Source: an uncultured Pseudobdellovibrionaceae bacterium | GTDB taxonomy: Bacteria > Bdellovibrionota > Bdellovibrionia > Bdellovibrionales > JAGQZY01 | Direction: 5' to 3' | Assembly (NCBI GenBank): GCA_964588335.1 | Contig: CAZPOV010000011.1 | Span: forward strand, 6,784 to 70,783 | DNA: 64,000 nt | Part shown: positions 7,759-63,860 of the stretch, in pieces | Numbering within the stretch: position 1 is the first letter of the stretch | Layout of the letters: each line of letters begins with the position of its first letter | Translations under genes and position numbers: made by a program | Notes under the pieces: generated by a model | The model's database searches: none | What the model was told of the DNA's origin: nothing | Seen by the model: only the letters and a program-made list of their open reading frames with translations

Positions 7759-8460
7759 TTAAAAAGTGAAGTTGTTGATTCTTAGAGCTTTTTCCGGTGG
7801 TTGCATGCGGCCGGAATGAGTCGATTCAAACCACACCAATTTTACCTCAGGATGATCTTGCGAAACTCGATGAAGTACCACGGGTTCATTGTCAATGAAC
7901 CACAGGGTTTGGTCTTTTTTGTTCTTTATGAGCTCACCCGTGAGTAAGGTTTTATACTCTTCATCAGAATGTTCTAAATTGTCTTTTAAAAACAAAAGAG
8001 ATTCGTCAATGGGGAAGCCCATGGCATCCAGTGAGGACAAAGTCCCTTCCCACATTGTCGGTTTGTGGCGAGCCGTTAGATAAACAAAATCGACTCCCAG
8101 TTCTTCAAGGGTTTGTATCCAATCGACCGCTCCGCGAACTGGCACATCAGAATGCAGGTATTTATTAGAGAAAAAATGGGTTCTCCAAAAATTTTCCAAA
8201 TCGTTTTTTGATCCTGGATTCAATTCCTTGAATTCCACTCTTTGTAGAGCGTGCACCAATCCGTAGTCGCCAAACTGGCATTTAGCCGTTTCTAGCTGAG
8301 AGCAGTCATCAGAGAATTGTTTCCGTTTTGCTTTTATCCAGTCTTCCAATATCGCTTGATTGCGCTGGTGAGTGGTCACCAATGTCGAATCAATATCGAG
8401 AATAAAGAAGTTGTCTTTTTCGGGCTTTTTTAAGGTTTCGAGCATTGCCGGTGTATCCAT
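7759..8460 (-). CDS. HAD-superfamily hydrolase
   Basis: DxDxT motif FFILDIDSTLVTT near the N-terminus and a later YLTARHK block. Substrate unknown. Confidence 0.6.
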   Translation of the reverse strand: MDTPAMLETLKKPEKDNFFILDIDSTLVTTHQRNQAILEDWIKAKRKQFSDDCSQLETAKCQFGDYGLVHALQRVEFKELNPGSKNDLENFWRTHFFSNKYLHSDVPVRGAVDWIQTLEELGVDFVYLTARHKPTMWEGTLSSLDAMGFPIDESLLFLKDNLEHSDEEYKTLLTGELIKNKKDQTLWFIDNEPVVLHRVSQDHPEVKLVWFESTHSGRMQPPEKALRINNFTF

Positions 8461-35177: not shown

Positions 35178-36521
35178 ATGGGAAATGCAGAAAAAGGTCC
35201 AAGTGTTCTTAGTCACATCCTCAATGGGTTGGTCTGCCTTATCCTCGCAGTTCTTTGGACTTTGCCAAGCTTGCTGAACGGTTTCCCCTTAAGTTACTAC
35301 GACTCCGCTTACTATGTTTACAATGCCTTTCACCTCCTTGAACCGGCCAATATTGCGTGGCGCCCCCTGACCTACAGTTTGTTATTGAGGCCCCCCTTCG
35401 AAGTGGCAGGCTTTTTAGGCGTCATTTTCCTGCAAAACATTTTGGTTGCTGGGTTCCTATTTAAATTCAGCCGACTGGTTTGGCCTGAATGTTCAAGAAA
35501 AGTCTTCTTTGCAATCGGACTTTTGTTAATGCTGACTCCCTTGCTCCATGTGAGTAATTTTATCATGCCTGATATTTTTAGTCCTTTAGCAGTCTTTGCC
35601 ATGCTTGGCTTTTTTCTCTGCAAACCAGGTGAACGTACCTTCTATTTTCTGGCCACAGCGTTTTTTTCATTCATGCATTTTTCAAATTTCATTTGTGTTA
35701 TTCCTTTAGTTATTTTTCATTTTTCAAAAAACTATCGCCGCGCTCTGTTCGCAGGAGTTGCAGTCGTTCTAACCATCCTGTCCGTTCGCTTTTTGTTTTT
35801 CTTTCCTAAAAAGAGCTTTGAAGAGTCGGCACACTATTTCGTTTATTCACGACTGGTCGCTTTCCAAATCACAGAGACTTATTTTTCACAAAAGTGTCCG
35901 GATGAAAAAATGGTCTTCTGTAACGCACAAAATAGGCATTTTGCTATTTGGAATAGTGATAGATCTCCCAATAGCGTCGCTCCAGGAATCGACATTCTGC
36001 CGAGTGTTGTTCAAGCCAATCAAGAGATCTTAAAATCAAGACTACTCTGGACCTATCTTTTTAAAGGCGTCGATCAAAGTCTCTTGCAGGCCTTGTTATT
36101 TTCACAACCAATGCCAATAATTTTGGACGATATAGCTTTGTTCCGGCAATACGGGAAATACGCTGGTGAAGATACTATTTTAGCATTTGCCAATCAAAAC
36201 ATCTTTAATGGGCGAAACTTTTCTCTTGAAAGCTATACCAAGACTGCCAGCTTTGTATTTCTGGGTCTGTCGATTATTAGTGTTCTAGTTTTAGGGATCT
36301 TATTATTCAAAAACCTTATTTTCGATTATGAAAAAAGGATCGTCTATTACTATTTTGCGGCCTATCTTCTAAACTGCATCGCTATCGGATTCTTTTCGGA
36401 GCCCCTGTCTCGCTATAACAATAAATTGGTCTGGGGATTCACTTTTTTGACTTTTATTTTTGTCAGCAAGTATCTTGCCGAACGTAACCAAAAAAATGCG
36501 GTTACATTGTCACTAAACTAA
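35178..36521 (+). CDS. polytopic membrane protein, possibly GT-C-type glycosyltransferase
   Basis: At least ten hydrophobic segments. Acidic/aromatic first loop (FPLSYYDSAYYVYN) as in ArnT/PMT-like GT-C enzymes. The function is speculative. Confidence 0.5.
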   Translation: MGNAEKGPSVLSHILNGLVCLILAVLWTLPSLLNGFPLSYYDSAYYVYNAFHLLEPANIAWRPLTYSLLLRPPFEVAGFLGVIFLQNILVAGFLFKFSRLVWPECSRKVFFAIGLLLMLTPLLHVSNFIMPDIFSPLAVFAMLGFFLCKPGERTFYFLATAFFSFMHFSNFICVIPLVIFHFSKNYRRALFAGVAVVLTILSVRFLFFFPKKSFEESAHYFVYSRLVAFQITETYFSQKCPDEKMVFCNAQNRHFAIWNSDRSPNSVAPGIDILPSVVQANQEILKSRLLWTYLFKGVDQSLLQALLFSQPMPIILDDIALFRQYGKYAGEDTILAFANQNIFNGRNFSLESYTKTASFVFLGLSIISVLVLGILLFKNLIFDYEKRIVYYYFAAYLLNCIAIGFFSEPLSRYNNKLVWGFTFLTFIFVSKYLAERNQKNAVTLSLN

Positions 36522-36567
36522 CTTAGCATCCGGCCAGTTTTCAATTCCACTCAATGGCGTCAGTTTT

Positions 36568-36590
36568 AATTTGAAGAACTTCAAATTTTT
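36568..36590 (+). terminator. weak AT-rich hairpin plus T-run after the membrane protein gene
   Basis: AATTTGAAG-aa-CTTCAAATT followed by TTT. The stem is AT-rich and the loop very short. Confidence 0.3.
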
Positions 36591-36805
36591 CGTTGCTTTC
36601 AGCGGCGTTGAAACTGTTACGATTTCTACGTTCTCTGCGCCAGAAAAAATAAGGCTGTAGAGTTTTAGGGGGAGATCAAGATTCATTCGTTCGATCTAAG
36701 CACCGAAATCAAACGAAAACTTGTCTCGAAATGAGACATGTCATTTTGTGACCGGCGAAGGTGGAATGATAAGGATATAGCGGAAACCGAGCATTGGGGG
36801 GCATT

Positions 36806-37564
36806 GTGAAGGTAAGCATTCGGATCATCTTATTTTTTCAGCTACTTGTTTTAGGGGCCTGCGGTATTGGCGAGGGTGTTAATCCATCCATCAAGACCGG
36901 CAGTCAGGAACAGTCTTCTTCAACCTCAACTTCATCGGCACCGCCAGTGGAAGTCAAAATCATCCACCAATGTGATCTTTCAGCCTACGTCAATCTGGAA
37001 CAAAATCGTGTCGACTTTTCTTACAGTACGGACCCAGCAGTGACAGTCCGTCGTCGTTATATCGATTTATTCAGAAGTGTCAGTTGGTCCACTCAGGCAC
37101 AAAAAGAAACTCAAATCAGAAATCTCTTGCGAGTCAACAGACTGACGCCACAACAGATCCAAGTTCGAATAGAGCAGCCAATCTGTACCGCTAGCAACTT
37201 TATGTTAGGAGAACAGCTGGAAGAGGGTGTTCTGCCGTTACAAGAACTTCTTGAAGCCGAATGTCCTGAGTTGAAGAGTCACAATATTTTCAGTGATGTC
37301 GACACAGATCTAGAACAGCAATTGGCCGACAAAATTCGCCGTGATTTTACCGAAGAAGAATACGCAGAGTTCGTTCAACCTTTTCACGCCCATGTCATTG
37401 ATTTGCTCATTGAAAATTCAAGCTATCTTGGGTTGACGTTCGGTATTAAAAAGCAAGGTGCCGCTATCATTCCAGAGTTTACTCAACGGCAAAAAGAAAT
37501 CAACGAGTCACAAGGTTGGCTCACCGCGCTTTTTCATAGCCAAGGCAATCTCTGTATCGAATAA
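36806..37564 (+). CDS. hypothetical lipoprotein
   Basis: With the GTG start at 36806 the protein begins MKVSIRIILFFQLLVLGACG (lipobox). A Ser/Thr-rich linker follows. No family recognised. Confidence 0.5.
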   Translation: MKVSIRIILFFQLLVLGACGIGEGVNPSIKTGSQEQSSSTSTSSAPPVEVKIIHQCDLSAYVNLEQNRVDFSYSTDPAVTVRRRYIDLFRSVSWSTQAQKETQIRNLLRVNRLTPQQIQVRIEQPICTASNFMLGEQLEEGVLPLQELLEAECPELKSHNIFSDVDTDLEQQLADKIRRDFTEEEYAEFVQPFHAHVIDLLIENSSYLGLTFGIKKQGAAIIPEFTQRQKEINESQGWLTALFHSQGNLCIE

Positions 37565-37653
37565 GCCATCCAAAATTGTTTAAGAATAAAAAAACCACCA
37601 TTAAATGGTGGTTTGTTAAAAAATAGTGGGACGGGCTGATTGGGATTAGAACT

Positions 37654-38478
37654 CTAGAAGTACGAGCCTTCGTCATCTTCGTCAAAATCATTGTCATCAT
37701 CAAGATCGTCGAAGGGGTTGAGTTCGGGGTCATCAAAGAGGTCATCGTCCTCTTGTTCATCTTCTTCAGCTTCTTCAAATTCATCGGAGTCGTCAGTGCT
37801 TCCCAGGCTATCCATATCGCCGCGAAGCTCTTCCATATCGCTCAAGTCATCTTCATCATCAAAGAAAGAGCGTTGCTTATCCTTGTCTTCCTCGACTTTA
37901 AATGGATTGGCACCAAGGATGGGCTTTTCATCCGTGTCTGAAGCCATGATGTCTTCAAACGAGGGAACAGCCGGTTTGGTTAAGACGCCACTGGCGGCCT
38001 CATCGTTGGCCTTGGCAACTTCTTTCTCGTCTTTTTTATTCTTCGGAGCAGGCTTTTTTTGAGCCGTTTTTTTAGAGGCTTTCTTTTTAGAAACCTTCTT
38101 TTTCGCTTTTTTCTTTGTAGTTTTTTTCTTAGCCTTTTTTTTCGTCTTCTTAGCCGCTTTTTTCTTGGCCTTCTTTTTAGACGTCGCTTTCTTTTTAGCC
38201 TTCTTTTTCGAAGCTTTCTTGGTGGCTTTTTTCTTAGCCTTCTTCTTTACCTTCTTTTTAGCTTTTTTGCGGGTCGTTTTCTTTTTAACCTTTTTACGGG
38301 TTGTTTTCTTTTTGGCCTTCTTTTTAGAGGCTTTCTTCGAACCCTTTTTACGAGGCGCTTTCTTTTTTGGTGCCTTTTTCTTACGAGTCGGCGCCTTTTT
38401 CTTGTTGGCCTTCTTTTTACGGCCTGGTGCCTTCTTTTTAATCACTTTTTTGCGTGTGGTTTTCTTCTTCTTTGCCAT
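37654..38478 (-). CDS. charge-segregated protein: histone-H1-like Lys/Ala-rich N-terminal half, poly-acidic C-terminal tail
   Basis: Longest ORF over the tract (274 aa), ATG preceded by GGGGGA ~10 nt upstream. AKKKKTTRKKVIKKKAPGRKKKANKKKAPTRKKKAPKKKAPRKK... for ~150 aa, then ...FFDDEDDLSDMEELRGDMDSLGSTDDSDEFEEAEEDEQEDDDLFDDPELNPFDDLDDDNDFDEDDEGSYF. Confidence 0.65.
   Translation of the reverse strand: MAKKKKTTRKKVIKKKAPGRKKKANKKKAPTRKKKAPKKKAPRKKGSKKASKKKAKKKTTRKKVKKKTTRKKAKKKVKKKAKKKATKKASKKKAKKKATSKKKAKKKAAKKTKKKAKKKTTKKKAKKKVSKKKASKKTAQKKPAPKNKKDEKEVAKANDEAASGVLTKPAVPSFEDIMASDTDEKPILGANPFKVEEDKDKQRSFFDDEDDLSDMEELRGDMDSLGSTDDSDEFEEAEEDEQEDDDLFDDPELNPFDDLDDDNDFDEDDEGSYF
38029..38475 (-). 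repeat. low-complexity AAG/AAA/GCC codon tract (imperfect KKKA/KKKT repeats)
   Basis: The plus strand is almost pure pyrimidine-rich (ctttttagcc ttctttttcg aagctttctt...) for ~450 nt. The repeats are imperfect tandem units without fixed spacers. Confidence 0.7.
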
Positions 38479-38684: not shown

Positions 38685-39518
38685 TTATCCTAGAAGTTGC
38701 AAAGCAAGTTGATTCTTCTGATTAGCCTGAGCTAACGTTGCGGTATTTGCCTGCATTAAAATTTGGCTACTTGTTAAGTTCGCAGTCTCAGCAGCGATGT
38801 CTGTATCGCGGATTCGACTGTTGGCAGCAGAAAGATTTTCTTCCATGCTTGATAGATTCGAAACAGTGGAGTTGAAGCGGTTTTGCACGGCACCGATATT
38901 GGCGCGAATTCTATTCACTTCAGTTTGCGCGGCATCCAGTTCAGCAAGACCTGTTTGCGCACCCGCTTTGTCTGAAAAATCAAGGGAAGCTAATCCAAGG
39001 GCGTCGATTGTTGCGACGTTGGTTGAGCCGTCCCAGCTGATTCGATCAGATGAGTCACTGTTAAAGATTCCCACTTGGAAGTCAAACTGAGGAGTTGAAC
39101 CATCAAGAAGATTGGTTGATCCCCATTTCGTAGTTTCAGAAATTCTCTGCATTTCTTCTTTAAGTTGAGCGACCTCTGCGTTGATAAAGCCTCTTTCATC
39201 GGCTCCAACTGTGTCAGAAGCGGCTTGGATGCCTAACTCACGAAGACGGATAACGATATTTCCAATCTCATTCAAACCACCTTCAGCAGTTTGCACTAAA
39301 GAGATGGCATCGTTGGTGTTTCTTTTGGCTTGGCTGGCTGAACGAATTTGCGCCTTTAAGCCTTCAGAAATGGCTAGACCGGCAGCATCGTCAGCGGCTT
39401 TGTTAATTCGGCTTCCAGAAGCTAGTTTCTCAAAACTGCTTTGGATCGCTAGGTTATTTTTCTGCATGGTTCGGTGAGCATTGATCGCCGACATATTGGT
39501 AGCAACTCGCATAGACAT
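38685..39518 (-). CDS. fliC: flagellin
   Basis: Conserved N-terminus MSMRVATNMSAINAHRTMQKN...LASGSRINKAADDAAGLAISE and C-terminus SRIRDTDIAAETANLTSSQILMQANTATLAQANQ. Strong RBS GGGAGGA. Confidence 0.9.
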   Translation of the reverse strand: MSMRVATNMSAINAHRTMQKNNLAIQSSFEKLASGSRINKAADDAAGLAISEGLKAQIRSASQAKRNTNDAISLVQTAEGGLNEIGNIVIRLRELGIQAASDTVGADERGFINAEVAQLKEEMQRISETTKWGSTNLLDGSTPQFDFQVGIFNSDSSDRISWDGSTNVATIDALGLASLDFSDKAGAQTGLAELDAAQTEVNRIRANIGAVQNRFNSTVSNLSSMEENLSAANSRIRDTDIAAETANLTSSQILMQANTATLAQANQKNQLALQLLG

Positions 39519-51974: not shown

Positions 51975-52931
51975 ATGAGCCGAATTGTTTTGGCAGTCGT
52001 ACTATTTTTTCAATTGTCTGTATCGATCGCACAAATAAAACTTGAGACCGGGGGTCCAAAGTTCGTCAATGACCGAGTTGTTGTCGAGGTCAACGACGCC
52101 GGTGAGATGGTGACTTTAAGTAAAAAAGAGTACCTCGAAATGACCGGCCGTCAGTACATGAAGCATTTGGTTGGTTTTTTTAACTACAAAATGTCATGGC
52201 AGACGGTGGCGTCGTATATCACCTCAACCATGGAAGCTGAGTTTGACGTTTATATCTTTATAAACGTTGATTATGAAGGTCGTCAGAATATGGCTGATCC
52301 CATACCGGCGCAGTACATGAAAGTCATCGAGCGAACACAGGCTGATCAAAAACTTTTCGTGAGAGAAAAAGGCCAAGTGGTGGGTATTCGTAGCGATGTG
52401 GCTGGAAACAATGGCGAACCAGCCTTTGCGACGACCATAGAGGCTCTGGATGGAACAAAAATAAATGGACATGGAATTATGAGAGACCTTATTCCAGTCT
52501 CCAGTGGTGCCAGCCATAAAGCCGCGGATCCTCAACCCTATGTAGACACTCCCACCGGTATCTATCGAATTAACCATTCGAAATCCGATGTCAAAAGATA
52601 CGGTACGGGGATGTGGCACTCCCTCTACTTTGACCTCATATATCCTTGGGGGAAATGGTCGGGATTGGCGGTTCATGGAACCAGCACCAATAAGTACAGT
52701 TTGCTTGGTAAACATCAAGACTCCCACGGTTGTGTGCGGGTGAAAAAGCCAGTCGCCAACCTCATGTATGAAAACCTGATCAACGATGGTAGCTATTGGG
52801 CTGACGATCTTCCCAACTTAAACAACAAGATGCGCTTGAAATCTGAAAACGGCGAGACAAAGCCTGGAGTTAGAGCTCTAATTATTCTGTTTTATGGATA
52901 CGATAGTTCAATGGAGCAGTGGGACACCTAA
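51975..52931 (+). CDS. L,D-transpeptidase (YkuD) domain protein
   Basis: Signal peptide. Catalytic block LAVHGTSTNKYSLLGKHQDSHGCVRV (H...SHGC(V/I)R). Confidence 0.75.
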   Translation: MSRIVLAVVLFFQLSVSIAQIKLETGGPKFVNDRVVVEVNDAGEMVTLSKKEYLEMTGRQYMKHLVGFFNYKMSWQTVASYITSTMEAEFDVYIFINVDYEGRQNMADPIPAQYMKVIERTQADQKLFVREKGQVVGIRSDVAGNNGEPAFATTIEALDGTKINGHGIMRDLIPVSSGASHKAADPQPYVDTPTGIYRINHSKSDVKRYGTGMWHSLYFDLIYPWGKWSGLAVHGTSTNKYSLLGKHQDSHGCVRVKKPVANLMYENLINDGSYWADDLPNLNNKMRLKSENGETKPGVRALIILFYGYDSSMEQWDT

Positions 52932-53133
52932 CAGTCGCTCGAAACGGTTGGTGGAAATATTTAATTATCTGTAACTGCTGGTTCAGCTGATCATTTTGGG
53001 TAAAATTGTTGCCCAAATTGTATGTATATAAAGCAGAGAATAATCCATGTCGGGGTTGTGAACCTGGTTTTTAAAATAACAGAGGTAGCATTAATAACTC
53101 GATTAAGGAGCTGAAAGGAGAGATTGTAAAAAG

Positions 53134-55968
53134 TTACTTTTCTAGTAATTTTTCAATTTTTTCTAGACGCTGTTTCAGTGCTTCCATTTTTCTATTTTTT
53201 TCCTCACTGTCTCGCTTGAGGCTTGTGATTTCTCTATTTTGATTAATTGTTCGCTGGATTAACCGATGAATTTGTTGGCTTTGCTCATGGTCAGCTGAGC
53301 TAAAATTGATGTAAGCATAACCGTTGGCGAGTAAGTAACCCACAGGTTTATGATCATGGGTCCAAATTTTTCCATTTTTAATGACTACTTGTTTTTCATT
53401 GAATGGAACTTGCCCAACGAGACCGACGAGAACTGTGTTCGATTGCTTTGCGAGCTCTGAGTTACCGATCACCCCTGGGGAGGTTGAAACCACTCCTAAC
53501 AGGTGATCGTTCTCTCTATAAGCTCGCACGTTGCCTGTGATTGGGTTAAGGCCTACAAGGTCTCCTGGTTTTACCTCTTCTTCTGCAGTGAAATACTCGG
53601 CGTAATCAGCTCCTGTATTTAAAGTCGTTTCAGCTGAGATTTCACCACCCGCTGGAATCGCTCCGCATGTCCCGTCGCTTGTTACACATAATCCACCACC
53701 GGCACCAGAGCCATCGACATGAAGTTTTGCGGCTGGGCCAGTTGTGCCTATCCCAACATTTCCTGAAAAGTAGTTGTCGTCGGTAGAACCAGCTTGGTAA
53801 ATTCCGTAGGTTGTCGTGCCTGGAAGGTCATCAATATAAAGTCCGTAGGCATTGGTTAGCGTCGCCGAATTTGAAGCCATGGCACGAAATCCGTAGTAAT
53901 TTTGTACTGTACCGCCATCGACTTTTAAGTTGGACAGGGATCCCGTCATGTCGGTGGTGCTACCAGATTTACTTTCCAGTTCGTTGAGGGTTCCCATTCC
54001 TGAATTCAGACTTGACGCCCATGAGGAAATAATATTGTAGGTGGCGACTTGTTGATCTTGACTGTTGGAGGAATCGCCACGAATTTGATTGCGAATACCT
54101 ATAATTTTTCCGAAGTGCGCGTTTCCGTTCTTGTAAATTTCATTGTTGATGTGAGTAAAATCTCCGGAAGCATCCCATGGATTGGTTTCAATTCTAAAAT
54201 TTTTCTTTCCGCTAAACATAGATCCGAGAGTTCCCATTATAAACTCACCATCACTGGATATTTTGGCGACGGTTGAACCATTGGCCTCGAGGTCAAGATC
54301 GTAAGCATCATTGGTCCCAATGGTAATGTCGGCACCCGTCGTATTACCTCCATTGGAAATATCACCACTGCCTCCGCCGACTCCAGCCGACAGATCCAAG
54401 CAGTTGGCGTTGTTTTCATCACAAATCGCAGCCGCATTGATTGTTCCGGTGTTGACGTCCAATGCGACGCTTGGAGAGGTGGTTCCAATTCCTACGTTGC
54501 CTGCGAAATAGTTGGTGTCGTCAGCACCTGTTTGATAAACTCCCCATTGGTTTCCACCAAGGATGTTTCCTAAAAAAAGCCCATATGAGTCGGTAGTGTT
54601 AGTATTATAGACATCGGATTTAAGACCATAAGCTTTGTTAACGCTACCAGTTCCAGTGACTAATGAGGCCACTCCTGTTGCTTCATAAGTTGACATCCCA
54701 GTGCTTGAATAAGTCTGTGCGTTGACTGCTATTTGACCAGCAACGATCCCGGCAGAAAGACGGTTAGAAAATTGTGCTGTAATTAGGTAGTCCTGAAAAT
54801 CGATACCGATGTTGCTGACATCTGAAGTGAATTCGAAAACTCTCGTTTCGTCGGGAGCTGTGCCTGCAGTATCAAATGCATGAAAAAAGTTATTGTACGT
54901 AAAATCGAACCCCGGAGGGCTTGTCGCTGTGACCACATCAATATTATTCGACTTGATTCGACCTGTAACATCAAGATCTGAGGTTGGATTCGCACTGCCA
55001 ATTCCTATGTTGCCCGAACTGTCGATTCTTAAGCGTTCTACTCCTGCGGTTGAAGCGGCAATGGTATCACCAAGTGGCGACCAGAAACCCGTGTTAAGGT
55101 CAGAGCTAAAGGTTAAACCGGGATTGGCAGCATCTCCCAATCCAAGGTGGCGAATATTATTTCCGTTCATGTGGATAAAAGTTGTCGCCGAATGGTTCCC
55201 TAAATTATCGCCTGCAACGCCAGCTGAAAGGTCTATACAATTGGTATTGTTCTCGTCACAAATACTGGCCGCATTAATTGCGCCAGTATTCACATCCAAT
55301 TCGACAGCCGGAGCCGTCGTTCCTATACCCACAAAGCCACTCGCTCCAACAATTGAAAGCGACTCGACCAGCGTGCTTGATTGTCGGGTGAAAAAGTGGA
55401 GATCACCAGAAGCATCATTGGGCCCTCGAGTTGAGGCCAAGCGGGCGGAATCAATAGCTCCACTTTGGAATAAGATTCCCGACCCACGATCATCACCAGA
55501 ACTGGTGTTTGTAAGCTTCAAGGAGTCAGAAATTCCCACCAAATTTCTTAAAATTTCAACTTTTTCAGTCGGCGATGCCGTTCCGATACCGACGTTTCCG
55601 GCGGTATCGATCGTCACTCGAGTTGAGCCTCCCGTTTCGAATTGTAAGACATTGGCGTCATTGGTACCGATAATCATGGGTGCGGCAAAGCTATTCCCGT
55701 TGTTCACCACTCCTGAAACGGAAGATGTGACGAAATCGAGCCAGGTCGACCCATTACAGAATCCAACAAGGTTGGTGCCATCCGCATCATAGCGAATCGC
55801 TCCGGCAGTCGAGGCGTCACAGATTGAAGTCGAATCGCCAACACGAAGCGCACCACCACCAGAAAAGTCAGTGTCGACTTGAGCGTAAACGGGATAAGTA
55901 AAAAACAAAGAAACAAAGAGGAATAGTAAAGATCGAGCCCTAGGATTTTCAAAGGAAATACAATCCAT
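53134..55968 (-). CDS. giant secreted tail-fibre-like repeat protein, paralogue 1 (non-S74 C-terminal module plus heptad tail)
   Basis: Signal peptide ...LLFLFVSLFFTYPVYA|QV. Five (S/T)GNVGIGTxxPxxxLxV punctuations. G/T/N/S-rich body. The ATG at 55968 is preferred over the tracked GTG at 56010. Confidence 0.7.
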   Translation of the reverse strand: MDCISFENPRARSLLFLFVSLFFTYPVYAQVDTDFSGGGALRVGDSTSICDASTAGAIRYDADGTNLVGFCNGSTWLDFVTSSVSGVVNNGNSFAAPMIIGTNDANVLQFETGGSTRVTIDTAGNVGIGTASPTEKVEILRNLVGISDSLKLTNTSSGDDRGSGILFQSGAIDSARLASTRGPNDASGDLHFFTRQSSTLVESLSIVGASGFVGIGTTAPAVELDVNTGAINAASICDENNTNCIDLSAGVAGDNLGNHSATTFIHMNGNNIRHLGLGDAANPGLTFSSDLNTGFWSPLGDTIAASTAGVERLRIDSSGNIGIGSANPTSDLDVTGRIKSNNIDVVTATSPPGFDFTYNNFFHAFDTAGTAPDETRVFEFTSDVSNIGIDFQDYLITAQFSNRLSAGIVAGQIAVNAQTYSSTGMSTYEATGVASLVTGTGSVNKAYGLKSDVYNTNTTDSYGLFLGNILGGNQWGVYQTGADDTNYFAGNVGIGTTSPSVALDVNTGTINAAAICDENNANCLDLSAGVGGGSGDISNGGNTTGADITIGTNDAYDLDLEANGSTVAKISSDGEFIMGTLGSMFSGKKNFRIETNPWDASGDFTHINNEIYKNGNAHFGKIIGIRNQIRGDSSNSQDQQVATYNIISSWASSLNSGMGTLNELESKSGSTTDMTGSLSNLKVDGGTVQNYYGFRAMASNSATLTNAYGLYIDDLPGTTTYGIYQAGSTDDNYFSGNVGIGTTGPAAKLHVDGSGAGGGLCVTSDGTCGAIPAGGEISAETTLNTGADYAEYFTAEEEVKPGDLVGLNPITGNVRAYRENDHLLGVVSTSPGVIGNSELAKQSNTVLVGLVGQVPFNEKQVVIKNGKIWTHDHKPVGYLLANGYAYINFSSADHEQSQQIHRLIQRTINQNREITSLKRDSEEKNRKMEALKQRLEKIEKLLEK

Positions 55969-56170
55969 CAAGAGGTTTAAAAATTTTTTATAATCGCTCA
56001 ACGTTTCCACACATAACTATCGGATAGGCCTGAAAATTTCTTGATTTAAAGTCTAAAAAAGAGACGTTTATTTTTATAATTTTAACGTCATAAAAAAAGT
56101 ACAGAGTGTATGTCTCGAAGTAAGACTGAACGCTGAGATACTTAAATAACAGTGGGGGATTTGTGGTTCT

Positions 56171-56195
56171 AAACTGCCTCAAAAAGAAGCGGCAG
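56171..56195 (-). terminator. weak hairpin after fibre paralogue 2
   Basis: Minus strand CTGCC-N12-GGCAG followed by TTT, directly after the stop codon. Short stem. Confidence 0.3.
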
Positions 56196-56200
56196 AGATT

Positions 56201-59200
56201 TTATTGAGCCGTCTTCTTAGGGTTTTTGATAAGCTGTTCTTCAATTTTTTCAATTCGCTGTAATAAAAGGTTAATTTTTTCATCTCTTTGTTGAAGATCA
56301 TTTTTAAGATTTTGAATTTCAATATCTTTCTGAGTCTTCTGTTTTTTCTGGACTGTCTTCAAAGCTGAAATTTCTGATTGCAAACCGCTTTCAGTTTTTT
56401 GTAGACGCAGATTCAGCTCTCGAATGGCTTCAATAATAGGAGCAATAAGCTTACTGTAAGCCACCGATAGAAGGCCTTGATCGCTTTCTGAAACCGCTTC
56501 AGGGAAAACCTTTTGCACATCCTGGGCGATCACCCCCATGTCTTGACCCGAGGGAAAATCGTAATCTCGAAATTCATCGCGACGCCAGTCATAGAGGACA
56601 CCGTGAATCTGTAGTAAGCTCTCCAAAGGATTATCGATAGACGAGATATTCCTTTTAAGACGTCGGTCGGACAAGTTATTGTAGGCCCCCACACCGGCCA
56701 CCGAACCATTGACGTGAAGTTTGTAGCTAGGATTGGTCGTACCAATTCCCACATCACCACTTGGGGTCACTACTAAAAAGTCATTGTAGGTGGTGCCGTC
56801 AAAATAATTGAACATCAGTTTGTCGGCGTCAGCTCCAATCGTAGTTCCATTTCTATAAGCAAGACTCCACTGGTTGCTGTTGGAGGTGTTCGCTAAATTC
56901 AGGTAGGAATAATTGTAGGCATCTAACGACGATCCGATGGCAGTGAGGCTGGCACCAGCGGCACCATTGTAGACTTCAACGGACCCGGCGCCAAAGTCAC
57001 CGCCCACCTGTAAGGTTTTTGTCGGGTTTGGATAATTAATACCGACATTTCCATCCGGGTCTATTCGCATGCGCTCGGTGGGCTCAGAGGTTGTCCCGTC
57101 GTTTGTTTTAAATACAAGAAATCCCTCATGGTTGCCATTGGCAAAAGTTCCTGAGGTCTCACCAGTGATAGTGGCAACGACCTGAGACGCTGAACCATCG
57201 TAGGCTTCATATCTTATTTGTCCAACAGCCTGACTGGTAGGCGTAATCGAGGTTGAACCTTTAGCTCCGCCATAATTAGTAAATTTAAAAATGGGATAAC
57301 CACCCGTAGCGCCTTCCCAGTTTTTAATATTCACTTCTGGGTAACGTGCCACACTCGAGCTAGTATTAACAACCTGCATTTTCACAGAGGCATTGTCTGT
57401 TTCCAGTTGAAGTTTATTTGACGGAGCGATTGTTCCAATACCTACGTTGCCGTTACCATCAATCGTCATTAAGTTGAAAGCTGTCGTGGTATCCTGGTCA
57501 TAAAACTCAAAGTTTAGGGTTTCCCCGGATCCACCATTGGCATCAATTCTAAATTCATCCTGTGCATTTGTGAAACTGCTAGTGTCTGAAAAGGCAAGAG
57601 TCGCTGAATCGTTCTTCAGCCAAAATTTTCCCAGGGATCCTCCACTCAGCTTTTGTGACCACAAAGGTTCATTTTGAGTGGAGTTTCTAAAGTAAAAATA
57701 ATCACCATCATTTCTAAACCCGACGTCATCCTGGGTGCCACCCGCATTATCATTGAGAATAAGCTGATAGTTAGTCCCATCTCCTACGATTTCCAAGTAT
57801 CCCGCCGGAGTCGTGGTGCCAATTCCCACGTTTCCAGATGCATCGATCGTCATTCTTTCAAGATTGTTTGTTCCCAAAATCAATTGATTAGCCTCGTAGT
57901 TCCAGACTGCAGCATTACCACCGGAACCATACCCCACATAAAAACCATCATTGATTGTTGACCCTGAATTTGTGTTTGTGAAAAGAGCCGCTGAGCGGCC
58001 GGCTCCTGTATTTAATTGAAGCAATTCATTTGGTGTTGTGGTGCCAATACCTACATTTCCAGAGGAGGTTATGGTCATCGCTTCGTTGCCACCGGTGGAA
58101 AAGCCGATGGTGTCGGGAGCAGATGAGAACATTCCGGTGTTAGTATCCAGGCCAAAGCGAAAATCAGGGGTTGTGGCATCTCCATTGTCAGCCATTAAAC
58201 CTCCCCAAGACACAAACCCGTTAGAATCCAAGGTGGCAATATTTCCTCCGTTGATGGAATAGCGAATTTCACCGCTGCCTAGGGTAAAAATTCCCGTATC
58301 CGGATCGGAATTGAAAGCCAGGCCGGGAGTGGCGCCGGTTCCATCGGCAAATAAAATTGTGTCACCGGCACTGTAGCCGCCACCTCCAGCCGATAGGTCC
58401 AAACAATTGGCATTGTTCTCATCACAAATTTCAGCTGCGTTGATTGACCCGGTGTTGACGTCTAATTCTACGGCCGGTGTTGCTGTACCTATGCCAACGT
58501 AACCATTGTTAGTGATTCTCATCCTTTCTTGGGCCACATTGGTTGTATTAGGCACAGTATAAAAAACCTGCTGGTTTCCGCCAGCTGTACCTGAATGTTC
58601 TTCGGATGCGAATATTTCCCATGCTGTGTGTTTCGTGCTCCCATTATCGACATTTCGATGAACGATCTTCGCTATAGAATCATCGCTGCGTACAGAAAAG
58701 TCATAACTGAAAAAATCAAGACTCTTGCCGTTAGCGAGACCGGCCAAATCGACCCATTGACCATTGACATAGGCTTCCATCGAAGTTCTTGTTGAGTTGT
58801 AGCGAACCATCCCGTTTTGCGCCGATACAGGCCGAGTGGCTATTGTTCCACCAGGGGTAATTATCGCCCCTGTTCCATTGACGTGAAATTCAGCGCCCGG
58901 TGTTGTTGTGCCAATGCCGACATTTCCAGAGGTATCGATTGTCATATGAGTTGTGTCATTGGTTTCAAAAGAGAGGGAGTTATTGTCATTGGTACCGATG
59001 ATCATCGGTGCGGCGAAACTATTGCCATTGTTCAGAACCCCTGATACCGAAGAGGTGAGAAAGTCGACCCAAGCCGAGCCATCACAAAATCCTACTAGGT
59101 TGGTGCCATCAGCATCATAGCGGATCGCTCCAGCAATGGTGGAATCACATGTTGAAGTCGAATCGCCCACACGAAGCGCGCCACCACCTGAAAAGTCGGT

Positions 59201-59320
59201 ATCCACTTGTGCCGACGCTGAACTGGGATTGAAAAAAAGTGTGGATATAAAAGTGGCCAGCAACACCGAAGCCGATGTTAGGGACGCAAAGAGAGAGCTC
59301 AAAGGTCTTCTGGTTTTCAT
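56201..59320 (-). CDS. giant secreted tail-fibre-like repeat protein, paralogue 2, with C-terminal intramolecular-chaperone (peptidase S74-like) domain
   Basis: Signal peptide MKTRRPLSSLFASLTSASVLLATFISTLFFNPSSASA|QV (ATG at 59320; the tracked TTG at 59428 is unlikely). Seven GNVGIGT-type punctuations. C-terminal SDRRLKRNI...VLYDW...GVIAQDVQKVFPEAV...VAYSKLIAPIIEAIREL. Confidence 0.75.
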   Translation of the reverse strand: MKTRRPLSSLFASLTSASVLLATFISTLFFNPSSASAQVDTDFSGGGALRVGDSTSTCDSTIAGAIRYDADGTNLVGFCDGSAWVDFLTSSVSGVLNNGNSFAAPMIIGTNDNNSLSFETNDTTHMTIDTSGNVGIGTTTPGAEFHVNGTGAIITPGGTIATRPVSAQNGMVRYNSTRTSMEAYVNGQWVDLAGLANGKSLDFFSYDFSVRSDDSIAKIVHRNVDNGSTKHTAWEIFASEEHSGTAGGNQQVFYTVPNTTNVAQERMRITNNGYVGIGTATPAVELDVNTGSINAAEICDENNANCLDLSAGGGGYSAGDTILFADGTGATPGLAFNSDPDTGIFTLGSGEIRYSINGGNIATLDSNGFVSWGGLMADNGDATTPDFRFGLDTNTGMFSSAPDTIGFSTGGNEAMTITSSGNVGIGTTTPNELLQLNTGAGRSAALFTNTNSGSTINDGFYVGYGSGGNAAVWNYEANQLILGTNNLERMTIDASGNVGIGTTTPAGYLEIVGDGTNYQLILNDNAGGTQDDVGFRNDGDYFYFRNSTQNEPLWSQKLSGGSLGKFWLKNDSATLAFSDTSSFTNAQDEFRIDANGGSGETLNFEFYDQDTTTAFNLMTIDGNGNVGIGTIAPSNKLQLETDNASVKMQVVNTSSSVARYPEVNIKNWEGATGGYPIFKFTNYGGAKGSTSITPTSQAVGQIRYEAYDGSASQVVATITGETSGTFANGNHEGFLVFKTNDGTTSEPTERMRIDPDGNVGINYPNPTKTLQVGGDFGAGSVEVYNGAAGASLTAIGSSLDAYNYSYLNLANTSNSNQWSLAYRNGTTIGADADKLMFNYFDGTTYNDFLVVTPSGDVGIGTTNPSYKLHVNGSVAGVGAYNNLSDRRLKRNISSIDNPLESLLQIHGVLYDWRRDEFRDYDFPSGQDMGVIAQDVQKVFPEAVSESDQGLLSVAYSKLIAPIIEAIRELNLRLQKTESGLQSEISALKTVQKKQKTQKDIEIQNLKNDLQQRDEKINLLLQRIEKIEEQLIKNPKKTAQ

Positions 59321-59501
59321 AAACTGTACAAACGTTACCACGTCTATGTATCGGGAATTTTTACAAAAAGCTTGATGTTTAATCTCTTTTCGAAGCACTT
59401 TATTTATAGGTTTTAACAATTGAGCCAAAGAATTCTTTGATTGAGACTTAGCGGCGAACTTGCTAGTTTAGGGATCTAAAATTTCAATAAGGAATATCAA
59501 A

Positions 59502-61223
59502 ATGAGATGGTCACAAGTTACTCTTAAAACTCTTAGAGAAAACCCCGCAGATGCCGAAATGGAAAGCCACCGTCTTTTCGTCCGTGGAGGCATGATAAAA
59601 AAAATTGCTCCCGGGATTTTCTCGTACGGTTATCTTTTTTTACGCTCCATTCGCAAGTTTGAACAAATCCTACGGGAAGAGCTAGGCAAAGAGGGCAGTC
59701 ACGAGATCCTAATGCCCATGGTGCAGCCAGCCTCACTTTGGAAAGAGTCCGGGCGTTGGCCGAAAATGGGCGAGTTGCTTAAGTTTAAAAACAAAAATGA
59801 CCACGATTTTTGTCTGGGTGCGACCCACGAAGAGGTGGTGGTTGATTTTATGAGAAATGATATCAAAAGTTATCGCGATCTACCCACTAACGCTTATCAA
59901 ATTCAGACCAAGTATCGCGACGAGATTAGACCCCGGTTTGGCTTGATGCGCGGGCGTGAGTTCATCATGAAGGACGCTTACTCGTTTGACCTTGATCGTA
60001 ATGCTGCTATGGAATCTTACGAGGCCATGAAACGGGCTTACCATGCCATTTTTAAACGACTGGGTGTGGATTACACCGTGGTAAAAGCTGATTCCGGTGC
60101 CATTGGTGGTGATCTTTCCAACGAGTTTCAAGTGGTGGCCGAGCACGGGATGGACCATGTTCTGTTGTGCGAGGCTTGCGGATATTCGGCCAACTCCGAA
60201 GTGGCCCCTCTGGTTTTGCCTGAAACCACCTCGGTGTGGACTGACGAGCCGATGCAGGAGTTTGCAACGCCGGGACTTCGGTCTATCGAAGACTTAGAAA
60301 AATCGTTAAAAACACCTGCGTCTCAATTGGTAAAAACCTTTTTTGTGAAATATCAGAATCAAGCGGGGAAGTGGAAAGAAGCCACTTTATTGCTGCCAGG
60401 TCATCGCGAGGTCAATCTTATTAAAGCCAAAACTGTGTTAAAGGCGACCTCGGATGTGGAGCCTTTAAATGATGATGAAGTCCGCAAGCTCACGGGTGCC
60501 AGTCCGGGAAGTTGCGGCCCGGTGGGGGTGGACGTCACCATCGTTCAAGATCCAGCGCTTAAACAATTAAATTCCTTTATCGTCGGCGCCAACAAAGATG
60601 ATTTCCATTTAAAGAATGTGGTGCCGGATAGAGATTTTAAATTGTCTCTTGATGCCGATATTTCTCAGGTTGAAAGTGGTGATCCTTGCCCGGACTGCGG
60701 TAAAAAATTAGCCGCCAAGCGAGGGATTGAAGTGGGACATATTTTTTATCTTGGCAAAAAATACTCCGAGGCCATGGGATTAAAATACCTTGATGAAGAC
60801 GGGAAGTCGCAGACTGTTGAGATGGGCTGTTATGGTATCGGGGTGACCCGAAGCCTACAGGCGATCATCGAGCAAAGTCATGATGAGGATGGAATGTGCT
60901 GGCCTAAAAGTGTGGCTCCCTTTCACGTTCATGTTTGTTTGCTTGATCCTGAGGATCAATCCATAGTTGATTGGCTGGATGTCTACCGCTCATCCATGGA
61001 GCGCATGGGTTATGAAGTCTTTGTCGATGACCGAAAAGAAAGACCGGGGATCAAATTTAAAGATGCAGACCTACTTGGGTTTCCGATTCGGGTTGTGGTC
61101 GGTAAGCGTGGCTTTGACAACAACGAAGTTGAACTTTTTGTACGCAAATCAAAAGACAAGCACAAAGTTCCTTTGGAAGAGGCTCTCACTAAATCCAAAG
61201 AATTGATGGAAGGTGCCTTTTGA
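59502..61223 (+). CDS. proS: prolyl-tRNA synthetase (bacterial type with insertion/editing domain)
   Basis: Class II motifs (FRDEIRPRFGLMRGREFIMKDAYSF, GCYGIGVTR), N-terminal LKTLRENPADAE and a C-terminal anticodon-binding domain. Confidence 0.9.
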   Translation: MRWSQVTLKTLRENPADAEMESHRLFVRGGMIKKIAPGIFSYGYLFLRSIRKFEQILREELGKEGSHEILMPMVQPASLWKESGRWPKMGELLKFKNKNDHDFCLGATHEEVVVDFMRNDIKSYRDLPTNAYQIQTKYRDEIRPRFGLMRGREFIMKDAYSFDLDRNAAMESYEAMKRAYHAIFKRLGVDYTVVKADSGAIGGDLSNEFQVVAEHGMDHVLLCEACGYSANSEVAPLVLPETTSVWTDEPMQEFATPGLRSIEDLEKSLKTPASQLVKTFFVKYQNQAGKWKEATLLLPGHREVNLIKAKTVLKATSDVEPLNDDEVRKLTGASPGSCGPVGVDVTIVQDPALKQLNSFIVGANKDDFHLKNVVPDRDFKLSLDADISQVESGDPCPDCGKKLAAKRGIEVGHIFYLGKKYSEAMGLKYLDEDGKSQTVEMGCYGIGVTRSLQAIIEQSHDEDGMCWPKSVAPFHVHVCLLDPEDQSIVDWLDVYRSSMERMGYEVFVDDRKERPGIKFKDADLLGFPIRVVVGKRGFDNNEVELFVRKSKDKHKVPLEEALTKSKELMEGAF

Positions 61224-62020: not shown

Positions 62021-62096
62021 GCTGAATTAGCTCAATTGGTAGAGCAACTGATTTGTAATCAGTAGGTTGGGGGTTCGAGTCCCTCATTCAGCACCA
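62021..62096 (+). tRNA. tRNA-Thr (anticodon UGU)
   Basis: Cloverleaf by hand: acceptor GCTGAAT/ATTCAGC, anticodon stem ACTGA/TCAGT, loop TTTGTAA, T-loop GGTTCGAGTCC, encoded CCA. Confidence 0.9.
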
Positions 62097-62195
62097 AATT
62101 TTGACATCGGGTTCCATAACTTGGGTCGAAATTTCGGGTAGATGGATCAAACAATTTGCCTTGAAGCTCTAAGTAATAGAGTCTTATTGGTTCGA

Positions 62196-62280
62196 GGAGG
62201 AGTACTCAAGCGGTCAACGAGGGCAGACTGTAAATCTGCTGGCTTAGCCTTCAGAGGTTCGAATCCTCTCTCCTCCACCA
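62196..62280 (+). tRNA. tRNA-Tyr (anticodon GUA)
   Basis: Acceptor GGAGGAG/CTCCTCC, anticodon loop CTGTAAA, long variable arm, T-loop GGTTCGAATCC, encoded CCA. Confidence 0.9.
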
Positions 62281-62386
62281 TTTTTTTAAGGTGGATTTTT
62301 GGCTTCGGCCATTTTGATTGTCAATTTGCTAAAAACCCCTTTGGGGGTGTAAAGCAAGGGGAATCAAAAAGGAAAAGACAACACGA

Positions 62387-62462
62387 GCGGGAGTAACTCA
62401 ATTGGTAGAGTGTCAGCCTTCCAAGCTGAATGTTGCGGGTTCGAGACCCGTCTCCCGCTCCA
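62387..62462 (+). tRNA. tRNA-Gly (anticodon UCC)
   Basis: Acceptor GCGGGAG/CTCCCGC, anticodon stem TCAGC/GCTGA, loop CTTCCAA, T-loop GGTTCGAGACC, encoded CCA. Confidence 0.9.
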
Positions 62463-62495
62463 AATTTTAAAAAAAGTCTCTTTGGAGAGGAACCT

Positions 62496-62570
62496 GCTGA
62501 TGTGGCTCAGTGGTAGAGCACGCCCTTGGTAAGGGCGAGGTCGAGAGTTCGATTCTCTCCATCAGCACCA
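62496..62570 (+). tRNA. tRNA-Thr (anticodon GGU)
   Basis: Acceptor GCTGATG/CATCAGC, anticodon stem CGCCC/GGGCG, loop TTGGTAA, T-loop AGTTCGATTCT, encoded CCA. Confidence 0.9.
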
Positions 62571-62669: not shown

Positions 62670-63860
62670 ATGGCTAAAGAGAAGTTTAATCGGGGAAAAC
62701 CCCATGTGAATATCGGTACTGTCGGCCACGTTGACCATGGTAAAACAACTTTGACGGCTGCAATCACCAAAACTCTAGCTGTGAACGGTGGTGGGCAGGC
62801 TATGGATTACGACATGATCGATAAAGCCCCTGAAGAGAGAGAGCGTGGAATCACGATTTCGACCGCCCACGTTGAGTACGAGACAGAAAAGCGTCACTAT
62901 GCTCACGTTGATTGTCCCGGACACGCCGATTATGTGAAAAACATGATCACTGGTGCGGCTCAGATGGATGGTGGAATCCTTGTGGTTTCTGCAGCGGATG
63001 GACCTATGCCTCAAACCCGCGAGCACATCCTTTTGGCTCGTCAGGTTGGTGTTCCAGCTCTTGTTGTTTTCCTTAACAAATGTGACCAAGTCGACGACGA
63101 AGAGCTTCTCGAGCTTGTTGAGCTTGAGATCCGTGAGCTTCTTAACAAATACGAATTCCCTGGCGACGACATTCCAATCGTTCGTGGTTCAGCTCTAAAA
63201 GCTCTTGAGGGTGAAGACAGCGAAATGGGTACACAAGCCATCATGAAGTTGATGGATGCCGTTGATGCGACTGTTCCTGAGCCTGAGCGTGATGTTGATA
63301 AGACCTTCTTGATGCCTATCGAGGACGTTTTCTCTATCTCTGGTCGTGGTACTGTTGTTACCGGTCGTATTGAGCGTGGTATTGTAAAAGTGGGTGAAGA
63401 GATCGAAATCGTTGGAATCAAGCCAACCACTAAAACCACTGTGACTGGAATCGAAATGTTCCGTAAGCTTCTTGATGAAGGTATGGCGGGAGATAACGCT
63501 GGTTGTCTTCTTCGTGGTACTAAGAAAGAAGATGTTGAGCGTGGTCAAGTTCTTGCCAAGCCTGGAACAATCACTCCTCACAAAAAATTCAAATGTGAGT
63601 CTTATATCCTTACTAAAGAAGAAGGTGGACGACACACTCCATTCTTCACTAACTACCGTCCTCAGTTCTACTTCCGTACAACTGATGTTACCGGTGTTTG
63701 TTCTTTGAAAGAAGGAACTGAAATGGTTATGCCTGGTGACCAAATTGAAATGAGCGTTGAGCTAATTGCTCCAATCGCCATGGAAAAAGGTCTTAAGTTT
63801 GCCATTCGTGAAGGTGGCCGTACCGTTGGTGCCGGCGTCGTTACTGAAATCGTAGAGTAA
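62670..63860 (+). CDS. tuf: translation elongation factor Tu
   Basis: [22 protein letters not shown] and SALKALEG. Full-length at 396 aa, with RBS AGGAGG. Confidence 0.95.

Follow-up and report, generated by a model that had tools for sequence, protein, structure and literature searches.

What kind of proteins are encoded by two large, repetitive genes lying side by side between coaD and proS in a Bdellovibrionales genome: fibres with which a predator recognises its prey, adhesins of a more general kind, secreted enzymes, or stray parts of a phage? The question is raised by contig CAZPOV010000011.1 of an uncultured bacterium assigned to Pseudobdellovibrionaceae, the family that contains Bdellovibrio (NCBI taxonomy). 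A stretch of 64,000 nucleotides of this contig (the window, to which all coordinates below refer unless another locus is named) was analysed. It carries two open reading frames (ORFs), here called A and B:

53134..56010, minus strand: ORF A, maximal ORF of 958 aa; fibre with a gp12/G2-type autochaperone end
53134..55968, minus strand: likely coding sequence of ORF A, 944 aa, with the start as called in the protein database
56201..59428, minus strand: ORF B, maximal ORF of 1075 aa; fibre with an S74 end
56201..59320, minus strand: likely coding sequence of ORF B, 1039 aa, with the start as called in the protein database

We consider it likely that A and B are paralogous fibres of the mosaic adhesive trimer (MAT) kind, located at a conserved chromosomal site, with adhesion to, or recognition of, the surface glycans of prey as their probable role. 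A first-pass annotation of the sequence had described two adjacent minus-strand ORFs of 958 and 1075 aa with G/T/N/S-rich bodies, and both descriptions hold. Glycine makes up 11-12%, serine and threonine 9-10% each and asparagine 8-9% of the two proteins, and together these four residues account for about 40% of each.

The MAT superfamily was described in B. bacteriovorus HD100 and includes, e.g., Bd3182 (S74 group) and Bd2133 and Bd1334 (NS74 group) (PMC10769870). The best PDB sequence matches of both A and B (phmmer, E 1e-8 to 9e-12) are crystal structures of such proteins: 8ond (Bd2133) and, assigned according to Table S2, 8ojn/8onb/8onc (Bd3182 constructs) and 8oml and 8on4 (Bd1334) (Caulton et al. 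2024, PMC10769870). The alignments are centred on GTND...TID.SGNVGIGT..P...L.V units, and the crystal chain of the Bd3182 tip aligns with residues 836-912 of B, which lie between its two last capping loops. These loops are the "capping loops" of the trimeric beta-helix, with the consensus V-G-G/N-pi-x-x-P-x-x-x-L (Caulton et al. 2024, PMC10769870). Their reported numbers, five in A and seven in B, are reproduced with a relaxed motif (G[NYFD][IV]GI[GN]), while the strict GNVGIGT-type form given originally has a single match in A. Profile searches, likewise proposed earlier, matched fibre families in PHROGs (tail-fibre families; A 4e-20, B 4e-57), Peptidase_S74 in B and Peptidase_G2 in A.

The two bodies share internal modules. 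A 37-aa junction motif (VGIGTxxPAVELDVNTGxINAAxICDENNxNCxDLSAG) occurs in two copies in A and one in B with 81% identity, and a further stretch of about 185 aa is 41% identical between the proteins:

55219..55338, minus strand: junction motif of A, copy 1, GFVGIGTTAPAVELDVNTGAINAASICDENNTNCIDLSAG
54382..54501, minus strand: junction motif of A, copy 2, GNVGIGTTSPSVALDVNTGTINAAAICDENNANCLDLSAG
58385..58504, minus strand: junction motif of B, GYVGIGTATPAVELDVNTGSINAAEICDENNANCLDLSAG, Cys335/Cys342, repeat family D1
53710..54330, minus strand: distal beta-rich body of A, aa 561-767, with the last capping loop GNVGIGTTGPAAKLHVDG at its end

The direct repeats within and between the two genes are only 60-82% identical, and very recent gene conversion is therefore not evident. 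The original idea of one base with a swapped end survives as regards module exchange, but A and B are better described as mosaics with common internal junction modules.

The N-terminal parts comprise the following features, the signal peptides being read from the sequence (the bar marks the cleavage site):

55882..55968, minus strand: signal peptide of A, MDCISFENPRARSLLFLFVSLFFTYPVYA|Q, aa 15-43
59210..59320, minus strand: signal peptide of B, MKTRRPLSS...NPSSASA|Q, aa 37-73 of the maximal ORF
55711..55881, minus strand: N-terminal cap module of A, aa 44-100, Cys64/Cys85 pair
59039..59209, minus strand: N-terminal cap module of B, QVDTDFSGGGALRVGDSTSTCD..GAIRYDADGTNLVGFCDGSAWVDF..SSVSG, Cys94/Cys115 pair
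58880..59038, minus strand: first generic fibre unit of B, NNGNSFAAPMIIGTND...TIDTSGNVGIGTTTP, with the first capping loop; still within the block conserved between A and B

By inspection, both signal peptides have a positively charged n-region, a hydrophobic core and an AxA|Q site (that of A, from the database start, reads MDCISFENPRARS-LLFLFVSLFF-TYPVYA|QVD). This cleavage context is kept in 12 homologues, in line with the signal peptide ascribed earlier to each ORF. The mature chains begin with QVDTDF, at aa 44 in A (VYA|QVDTDF) and at aa 74 in B (ASA|QVDTDF). All cysteines of the mature proteins stand in close pairs (64/85, 251/258, 530/537 and 775/782 in A; 94/115 and 335/342 in B), as expected of exported, disulfide-bonded proteins and consistent with an oxidising compartment.

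Over the first 90, 100, 110 and 130 mature residues A and B are 81, 82, 76 and 65% identical, respectively; at the nucleotide level, positions 55555-55884 and 58883-59212 are 75% identical, with 228 nt of that stretch at 82%. The hand-aligned estimate of about three quarters identity over the first ~110 residues is close to these values, but the divergence reported beyond that point is only partial, given the junction motif and the ~185-aa stretch. The block that had been taken for one conserved module is also composite. Its distinctive part is limited to the first ~57 mature residues (QVDTDFSGGGALRVGDSTSxCD...GAIRYDADGTNLVGFCxGSxW...SSVSG), and the next ~50 form a generic fibre unit, which in B aligns with residues 2-67 of Bd3182 chain 8ojn.

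When 1.84 billion representative proteins were searched with a profile of the 57-residue module, 1498 representative clusters matched at E<=1e-3. Matches starting at profile position 1-2 lie at residues ~1-50, directly behind the signal peptide, in about 39 of the 150 clusters listed and deep within the protein in only three of them. Where the module forms an internal repeat in giant proteins (up to 13 copies), the matches begin at profile positions 4-15. On this pattern, the QxDxDF prefix belongs specifically to the N-terminal copy. Sampled proteins with an N-terminal module start with AQ(M/I/V)D(S/A)DF and end in S74, DUF1554/endostatin-like or unannotated parts. The Cys-containing "RYN/RYD" mini-domain was also seen 5-13 times in giant proteins of 1500-5800 aa (P0138-P0165, e.g. 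P0143 and P0153), some of which contain C1q or C-type lectin domains or an S74 end as well. An AlphaFold2 (AF2) monomer model of the 116 N-terminal mature residues had a predicted local distance difference test score (pLDDT) of 67, with 72-83 over the disulfide mini-domain, and gave no Foldseek match in PDB better than E=1.

All 21 HD100 MATs have a common beta-rich domain of ~130 aa right behind the signal peptide (Caulton et al. 2024, PMC10769870). For comparison with the window-type module, this domain was represented by a proxy, namely a profile of the ~110-140-aa N-domains of six fibres (P0057, P0065, P0050, P0083, P0077 and P0067), of which two are named as Bdellovibrio/Bdellovibrionales and one as Bacteriovorax, one is labelled only Proteobacteria and two are unnamed. 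The proxy N-domain occurs also in proteins of Bdellovibrio sp. and B. bacteriovorus, a homology search with it returned only 7 short proteins (one a B. bacteriovorus fragment), and it is a plausible stand-in for the HD100 domain.

The C-termini of the two proteins differ in kind. That of B is readily classified:

56492..56671, minus strand: Peptidase_S74 chaperone of B, aa 920-979; S920-D-R-R-L-K925 fits SDxxxK
56204..56446, minus strand: C-terminal helical (heptad) tail of the chaperone pro-domain of B, ending ...LLLQRIEKIEEQLIKNPKKTAQ

Peptidase_S74 (PF13884) was found in B and not in A, with 62.5 bits against a cutoff of 22 (4.5e-17) and coverage of profile positions 1-57 of 58. Further PDB sequence matches of B are MyRF (7dc3) and a phage long tail fibre distal subunit (6f45). 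The SDxxxK motif defines the S74 MATs, and Bd3182 was shown to cleave at its serine (Caulton et al. 2024, PMC10769870); self-cleavage of B is accordingly predicted at Ser920.

The end of A is of another type, related to the pre-neck appendage protein gp12 of phage phi29:

53296..53670, minus strand: phi29 gp12-type (Peptidase_G2) domain of A; NTGA|DYAEYF (D802) aligned with gp12 NTWS-DFAEYF; Cys775/Cys782 just upstream
53137..53295, minus strand: C-terminal helical tail of A; model helix 165-214, pLDDT 72-90; ends ...ALKQRLEKIEKLLEK

Peptidase_G2 (PF11962), the "IMC autoproteolytic cleavage domain" of gp12 (IMC, intramolecular chaperone; Pfam), passes its cutoff of 25 marginally in A (25.9 bits, aa 781-866), and the precomputed Pfam assignment of P0007, the database copy of A, agrees. 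In a weak phmmer match (E 0.43 against PDB), ...LNTGADYAEYFTAE... of A is aligned with ...GNTWSDFAEYFESL... of gp12, and D..AE is invariant in an alignment of A with eight homologues. The AF2 model of the last 215 residues (mean pLDDT 70) has a pLDDT of ~88 at 58-160, is confident from DYAEYF onward and continues into a long helix. Its top Foldseek match in PDB is the C-terminal fragment of gp12 (3gqh; E 5e-4, probability 1.00, template modelling score (target) 0.48) and its second is pre-mature gp12 (3suc), the remaining matches being noise, while the sequence identity of the two domains is 15-17%.

The helical tails of A and B have the motif R-[LI]-E-K-I-E-x-x-L in common. A terminal motif R-[LI]-[ED]-x-I-E-[KE]-x-L was also seen, nearly invariant, in S74-type and four G2-type fibres (A and P0121-P0123), and more distant gp12-like homologues were seen to end in ...VLLSLQ without a helical tail. 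From this distribution, the pro-domain of A looks like a hybrid between a gp12-like beta domain and a coiled-coil tail of the type found in Bdellovibrio and like organisms.

Different globular ends followed by similar heptad tails had been recognised before and are confirmed, but not as distal modules: they are most likely two kinds of intramolecular chaperone, S74 in B and G2 in A, removed at maturation, and not receptor-binding tips. As the chaperones are cleaved in characterised homologues, and the gp12 IMC is absent from the mature virion appendage (PMC9863714), the C-terminal modules of A and B are probably not the functional distal tips; these would be the parts now preceding them, ~793-919 in B and ~561-801 in A.

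The chromosomal site itself is conserved. In a scan of one genome per species (GTDB representatives, a set that does not include the window's own genome), the N-module was found in only three metagenome-assembled genomes (MAGs), all labelled Bdellovibrionales or Pseudobdellovibrionaceae, at 1, 4 and 5 loci (5 fibre genes at the 4 loci of the second). The fibres thus belong to a multigene family, with up to 5 loci per related MAG. Three MAG loci are syntenic with the window, in the order spoU-proS, fibre(s), (ldt), coaD, Lon-N. The same housekeeping genes thus flank fibres in four genomes, with a flank nucleotide identity to the window of 73-86%. The fibres in the two slots differ:

Window locus: slot 1, S74 fibre of 1039 aa; slot 2, G2-type fibre of 944 aa
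L001 locus: slot 1, S74 fibre of 820-862 aa; slot 2, fibre of 1273 aa with a Cys-rich tip
L002 locus: slot 1, S74 fibre of ~700 aa; slot 2, fibre of ~600 aa with a small Cys tip
L003 locus: slot 1, one S74 fibre of 610 aa; slot 2, none

In L002, the maximal ORFs of the tandem fibres overlap by 44 nt (8057-8100), the second gene probably beginning further downstream, close to its signal peptide.

L001, from the closest MAG, has protein identities with the window of 96.5% for ProS, 97.7% for CoaD, 96.3% for the Lon-N domain protein, 94.2% for SpoU and 88.4% for Ldt. Its ortholog of A (A') is collinear with A over aa 1-343 and then carries an insertion of ~360 aa with a B-like segment, after which A 337-762 matches A' 702-1127, the last 207 residues of this block being 84% identical. 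Homology ends at about window position 53710, directly behind the capping loop GNVG[IV]GTxxPxAKLxVxG, and a different tip lies beyond. The tip of A' is Cys-rich and is found on another body in the metagenomic protein P0019. The alignments show that modules have been exchanged in place at the proS-coaD locus and, together with the MAT structure matches and the synteny, they sustain the initial view that the chromosome, and not a prophage, carries here a pair of exported modular fibres of the Bdellovibrio MAT kind.

The Cys-rich tip, ~143-145 aa long and ending in ...PCNAQP[VI]WCCSE, was seen on these two bodies in different assemblies (L001 9250-9693, the tip of P0003, and the C-terminus of P0019). 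No Pfam match was obtained for the P0003/P0019 tip, the 94-aa tip of L002 or the beta-rich tip of P0012, and the P0003 tip, the only one compared with PDB by sequence, had no match there.

The other paralogues stand singly in unrelated contexts without a common accessory gene. A second fibre locus is orthologous between two related MAGs (L005 and L007), with five common ORF families upstream of the fibre, some of these families overlapping in opposite orientation, perhaps as shadow ORFs. The proS-coaD position is thus not the only conserved chromosomal "fibre site".

Around the pair in the window, Pfam identifies a Lon-N domain protein, a coaD-like cytidylyltransferase and a YkuD L,D-transpeptidase on one flank, and proS, a SpoU methylase, four tRNAs and tuf follow on the other. 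The coaD, L,D-transpeptidase and proS flanks named in the first-pass annotation are thereby confirmed and extended by the Lon-N and SpoU genes. Farther upstream in the window lie genes for a sensor kinase, a sigma-54 regulator, riboflavin synthesis, ClpB and flagellin. As had been stated, there are no other phage genes: none was found in the 20 kb upstream of the fibre pair, in the 4.5 kb downstream of it (to the end of the window) or between ORF B and tuf. A promoter and terminator scan of 52800-59600 did no better than on shuffled sequences, and no recombinase was seen in those ORFs that were scanned against Pfam (a part of all ORFs, and no search was made for templates like those of diversity-generating retroelements).

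Three further observations concern the window. The tRNA cluster (Thr(tgt), Tyr(gta), Gly(tcc) and Thr(ggt); 62021-62570, plus strand) lies directly upstream of tuf (62670-63860), which is an ordinary arrangement. ORFs of 447, 256 and 274 aa (35178-38478), without a Pfam match at E<=1e-5, adjoin the flagellin gene (38685-39518, minus strand). A 299-aa ORF runs antisense within ORF A (54893-55792, plus strand), and comparable antisense ORFs lie opposite the fibre genes in L001, L003, L004 and L007; that in ORF A is a shadow of the conserved repeat sequence and no independent gene.

A mechanism can be proposed from these features. Each fibre would be exported by the Sec pathway, its signal peptide being cut at AxA|Q, as its N-terminus suggests. 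By homology, the C-terminal chaperone (S74 in B, gp12/G2 in A), with its trimer-type helical tail, would bring three chains into register, and these, folding from the C- to the N-terminus, would intertwine into a beta-helical fibre with VGIGTxxPxxxL capping loops at intervals; that A and B form trimers at all is deduced from homology and the presence of trimer-specific chaperones. The chaperone might then remove itself, at Ser920 in B and at about Ala801|Asp802 in A, exposing the last beta-helix module as the distal, ligand-binding end, while the N-module (the QVDTDF cap plus the disulfide "RYD" mini-domain) would be the proximal end and keep the fibre attached to the cell. Judging from Bd2439 and Bd3182, the distal beta-helix modules may bind surface glycans of prey or of other targets. 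The pattern in the compared genomes suggests that new specificities arise when recombination at the repeated capping-loop and junction motifs swaps bodies and tips between paralogues and species.

A phage origin deserves consideration, since at the family level A and B match phage tail-fibre PHROGs most strongly, the first descriptions of S74 and G2 chaperones come from phage fibres and spikes, and the window stops 4.5 kb past ORF B; A and B could then be leftovers of a decayed prophage, or tail fibres that serve a phage, a tailocin or an extracellular contractile injection system with its genes elsewhere in the genome. Phage and tailocin fibres, however, assemble in the cytoplasm, whereas A and B have Sec-type signal peptides with a kept cleavage context and paired cysteines. 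The 20 kb upstream and the interval between ORF B and tuf are devoid of phage genes, and the same housekeeping genes flank the fibres in four genomes although the flanks are only 73-86% identical to the window in nucleotide sequence. A prophage or tailocin cluster just outside the window, named beforehand as the context that would speak against a chromosomal pair, does not fit the housekeeping flanks and the synteny with three related MAGs. The conserved locus, its flanks and the dispersed paralogues, single and without a common accessory gene, rule out a prophage; a prophage or tailocin fibre was rejected on the flanks, the synteny in 4 genomes and the signal peptides, and the broader possibility of fibres for a system encoded elsewhere seems to us highly improbable. 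A trimeric autotransporter of the YadA type was rejected too, as neither protein has a YadA anchor, head or stalk at Pfam E<=1 and their C-termini are chaperones. No glycosidase, lyase or esterase family was found in either body at the same threshold, for which reason a depolymerase was rejected, and the bodies match thin MAT fibre repeats and not a large right-handed catalytic beta-helix. Exported enzymes of the tailspike type that degrade polysaccharides of prey or of the environment, instead of adhering passively, are consequently hardly to be expected here, even though the prototypes of both chaperone types, phi29 gp12 (PMC9863714) and the endosialidases, are enzymatic beta-helical spikes.

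The explanation closest to our own is that A and B are general-purpose surface adhesins or fibres (for substrata, biofilm or co-aggregation) with the same architecture and maturation and no specific part in predation. DUF1554/endostatin-like, C1q and C-type-lectin parts occur in proteins among the 1498 clusters with the N-module, annotation places homologues of the fibres in MAGs of Flavobacteriales, Limisphaerales, Elusimicrobia and Bacillota, strains "predatory and otherwise" have been noted to carry MAT-like proteins (Caulton et al. 2024, PMC10769870), and in Peredibacter more MATs did not mean a wider prey range (PMC13147790). Yet the closest carriers of the exact N-module are all Bdellovibrionales/Pseudobdellovibrionaceae MAGs, the closest solved homologues are prey-associated MATs, and the rapid turnover of tips at a conserved locus fits arms-race recognition. 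We therefore regard general adhesins as unlikely, if far less so than phage parts or enzymes.

Several points nevertheless weigh against the assignment of A and B as prey-directed MAT-kind fibres. That they trimerise, are cleaved, are displayed on the surface and bind ligands is inferred throughout, the predatory lifestyle of the source organism is assumed from its taxonomy, and the N-module family also occurs in many proteins with other tips, with which a non-predatory adhesin role is equally compatible. In the profile-profile comparison of the window-type N-module with the proxy Bdellovibrio-type N-domain, homology was undetectable (hhalign probability 1.3%), and the anchoring step cannot, for that reason, be carried over from HD100. 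Behind the G2 assignment of A stand a marginal Pfam score, a weak phmmer match and a monomer model built from 9 sequences. Xiang et al. are said to have reported in 2009 that release of the gp12 chaperone requires ATP, which an exported A would lack.

If the assignment as MAT-kind fibres is nevertheless followed, a wider reading suggests itself, which we hold to be possible but somewhat doubtful. The QxDxDF-capped disulfide "RYD" mini-domain would be a second, phylogenetically widespread base module of Sec-exported trimeric fibres, one that in this Bdellovibrionales lineage takes the place of the MAT N-domain of HD100 type. The proS-coaD site would be a conserved two-slot "fibre cassette", in which slot 1 always has an S74 fibre and the terminus in slot 2 is exchanged freely at capping-loop breakpoints (gp12-type chaperone, Cys-rich tip or small Cys tip), and the gp12-type chaperone would work outside the cytoplasm without the ATP-dependent release of phi29.

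MAT fibres are the current best candidates for multi-prey recognition by Bdellovibrio-like predators, and the locus bears on two questions, namely how predators anchor them and how new specificities arise. It offers a natural experiment: the chromosomal site is the same in four related genomes, the bodies and termini of the fibres differ, and one breakpoint could be placed at a capping loop. Evidence of this kind from an orthologous locus supports the idea of "tip-swapping". As the locus shows, a MAT-like fibre can be built on another N-terminal base and can be fitted with an autochaperone of the second known class. Should the base module serve as an anchor, its wide occurrence offers a way to its surface partner; should an exported fibre be matured by the gp12-type domain, the ATP requirement calls for re-examination. 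Capping-loop junctions also suggest splice points for the engineering of predators, e.g. with retargeted prey range. While MAT-like fibres in a Bdellovibrionales MAG are unsurprising as such, the locus may be useful to specialists for the study of anchoring and tip exchange.

Among known systems, phi29 gp12 (PDB 3gqh, 3suc and 6qz9) resembles A in its C-terminal domain, which has the same fold (Foldseek), passes the Pfam threshold and begins with D-[YF]-A-E-Y-F. Unlike gp12, a cytoplasmically assembled virion part with an enzymatic beta-helix, A is a Sec-exported cellular protein with a thin MAT-type fibre body, and its domain is followed by a helical tail of ~50 aa with the terminal motif of S74-type fibres. 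B shares with the S74 fibres and spikes (phage K1F endosialidase, T5 L-shaped tail fibre and MyRF) a full-length PF13884 domain, SDxxxK and a preceding capping loop; it differs from those of phages in being encoded by a cellular gene with a signal peptide and without phage neighbours. Peredibacter starrii HCB2-198 has 29 MATs, 20 of them contiguous, and that study, which took MATs from GenBank annotation only, without analysis of N-modules, chaperone types or breakpoints, describes lineage-specific fibre sequences, contiguous genes and low between-strain identity at common clusters, as are found here (PMC13147790).

The HD100 MATs are the closest counterpart. A and B, like them, are exported proteins of ~1000 aa from a Bdellovibrionales genome, with bodies homologous in sequence to the solved MAT beta-helix units and recurring VGxGxxxPxxxL capping loops; B has the S74 terminus with SDxxxK; the N-terminus is conserved and the distal parts are mosaic and variable; the genes belong to a dispersed multigene family; and tandem pairs occur in HD100 as well (bd0704/0705 and bd3266/3267, consecutive locus tags). 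The disulfide junction motif ICDENNANCLDLSAG is recurrent and prominent in A and B. HD100 MATs have 13 S74 and 8 NS74 termini, the NS74 tips being beta-rich, TNF-like, C-type lectin or SPRY (PMC10769870), and the gp12/G2-type autochaperone of A fits neither the S74 class nor the chaperone-free NS74 class as described. The N-module likewise departs from the HD100 pattern, being a QxDxDF-capped disulfide mini-domain of ~57 aa instead of a beta-rich domain of ~130 aa, and in the comparison with the proxy its homology to that domain was undetectable. Tandem pairs, mosaicism and lineage-specific contiguous MAT sets are already published, A and B would function in the manner of MATs, and ORF B would be annotated as a MAT; what differs from the HD100 definition is the base module, the gp12-type chaperone on A and a tip-swap breakpoint that lies at a capping loop in an orthologous locus.

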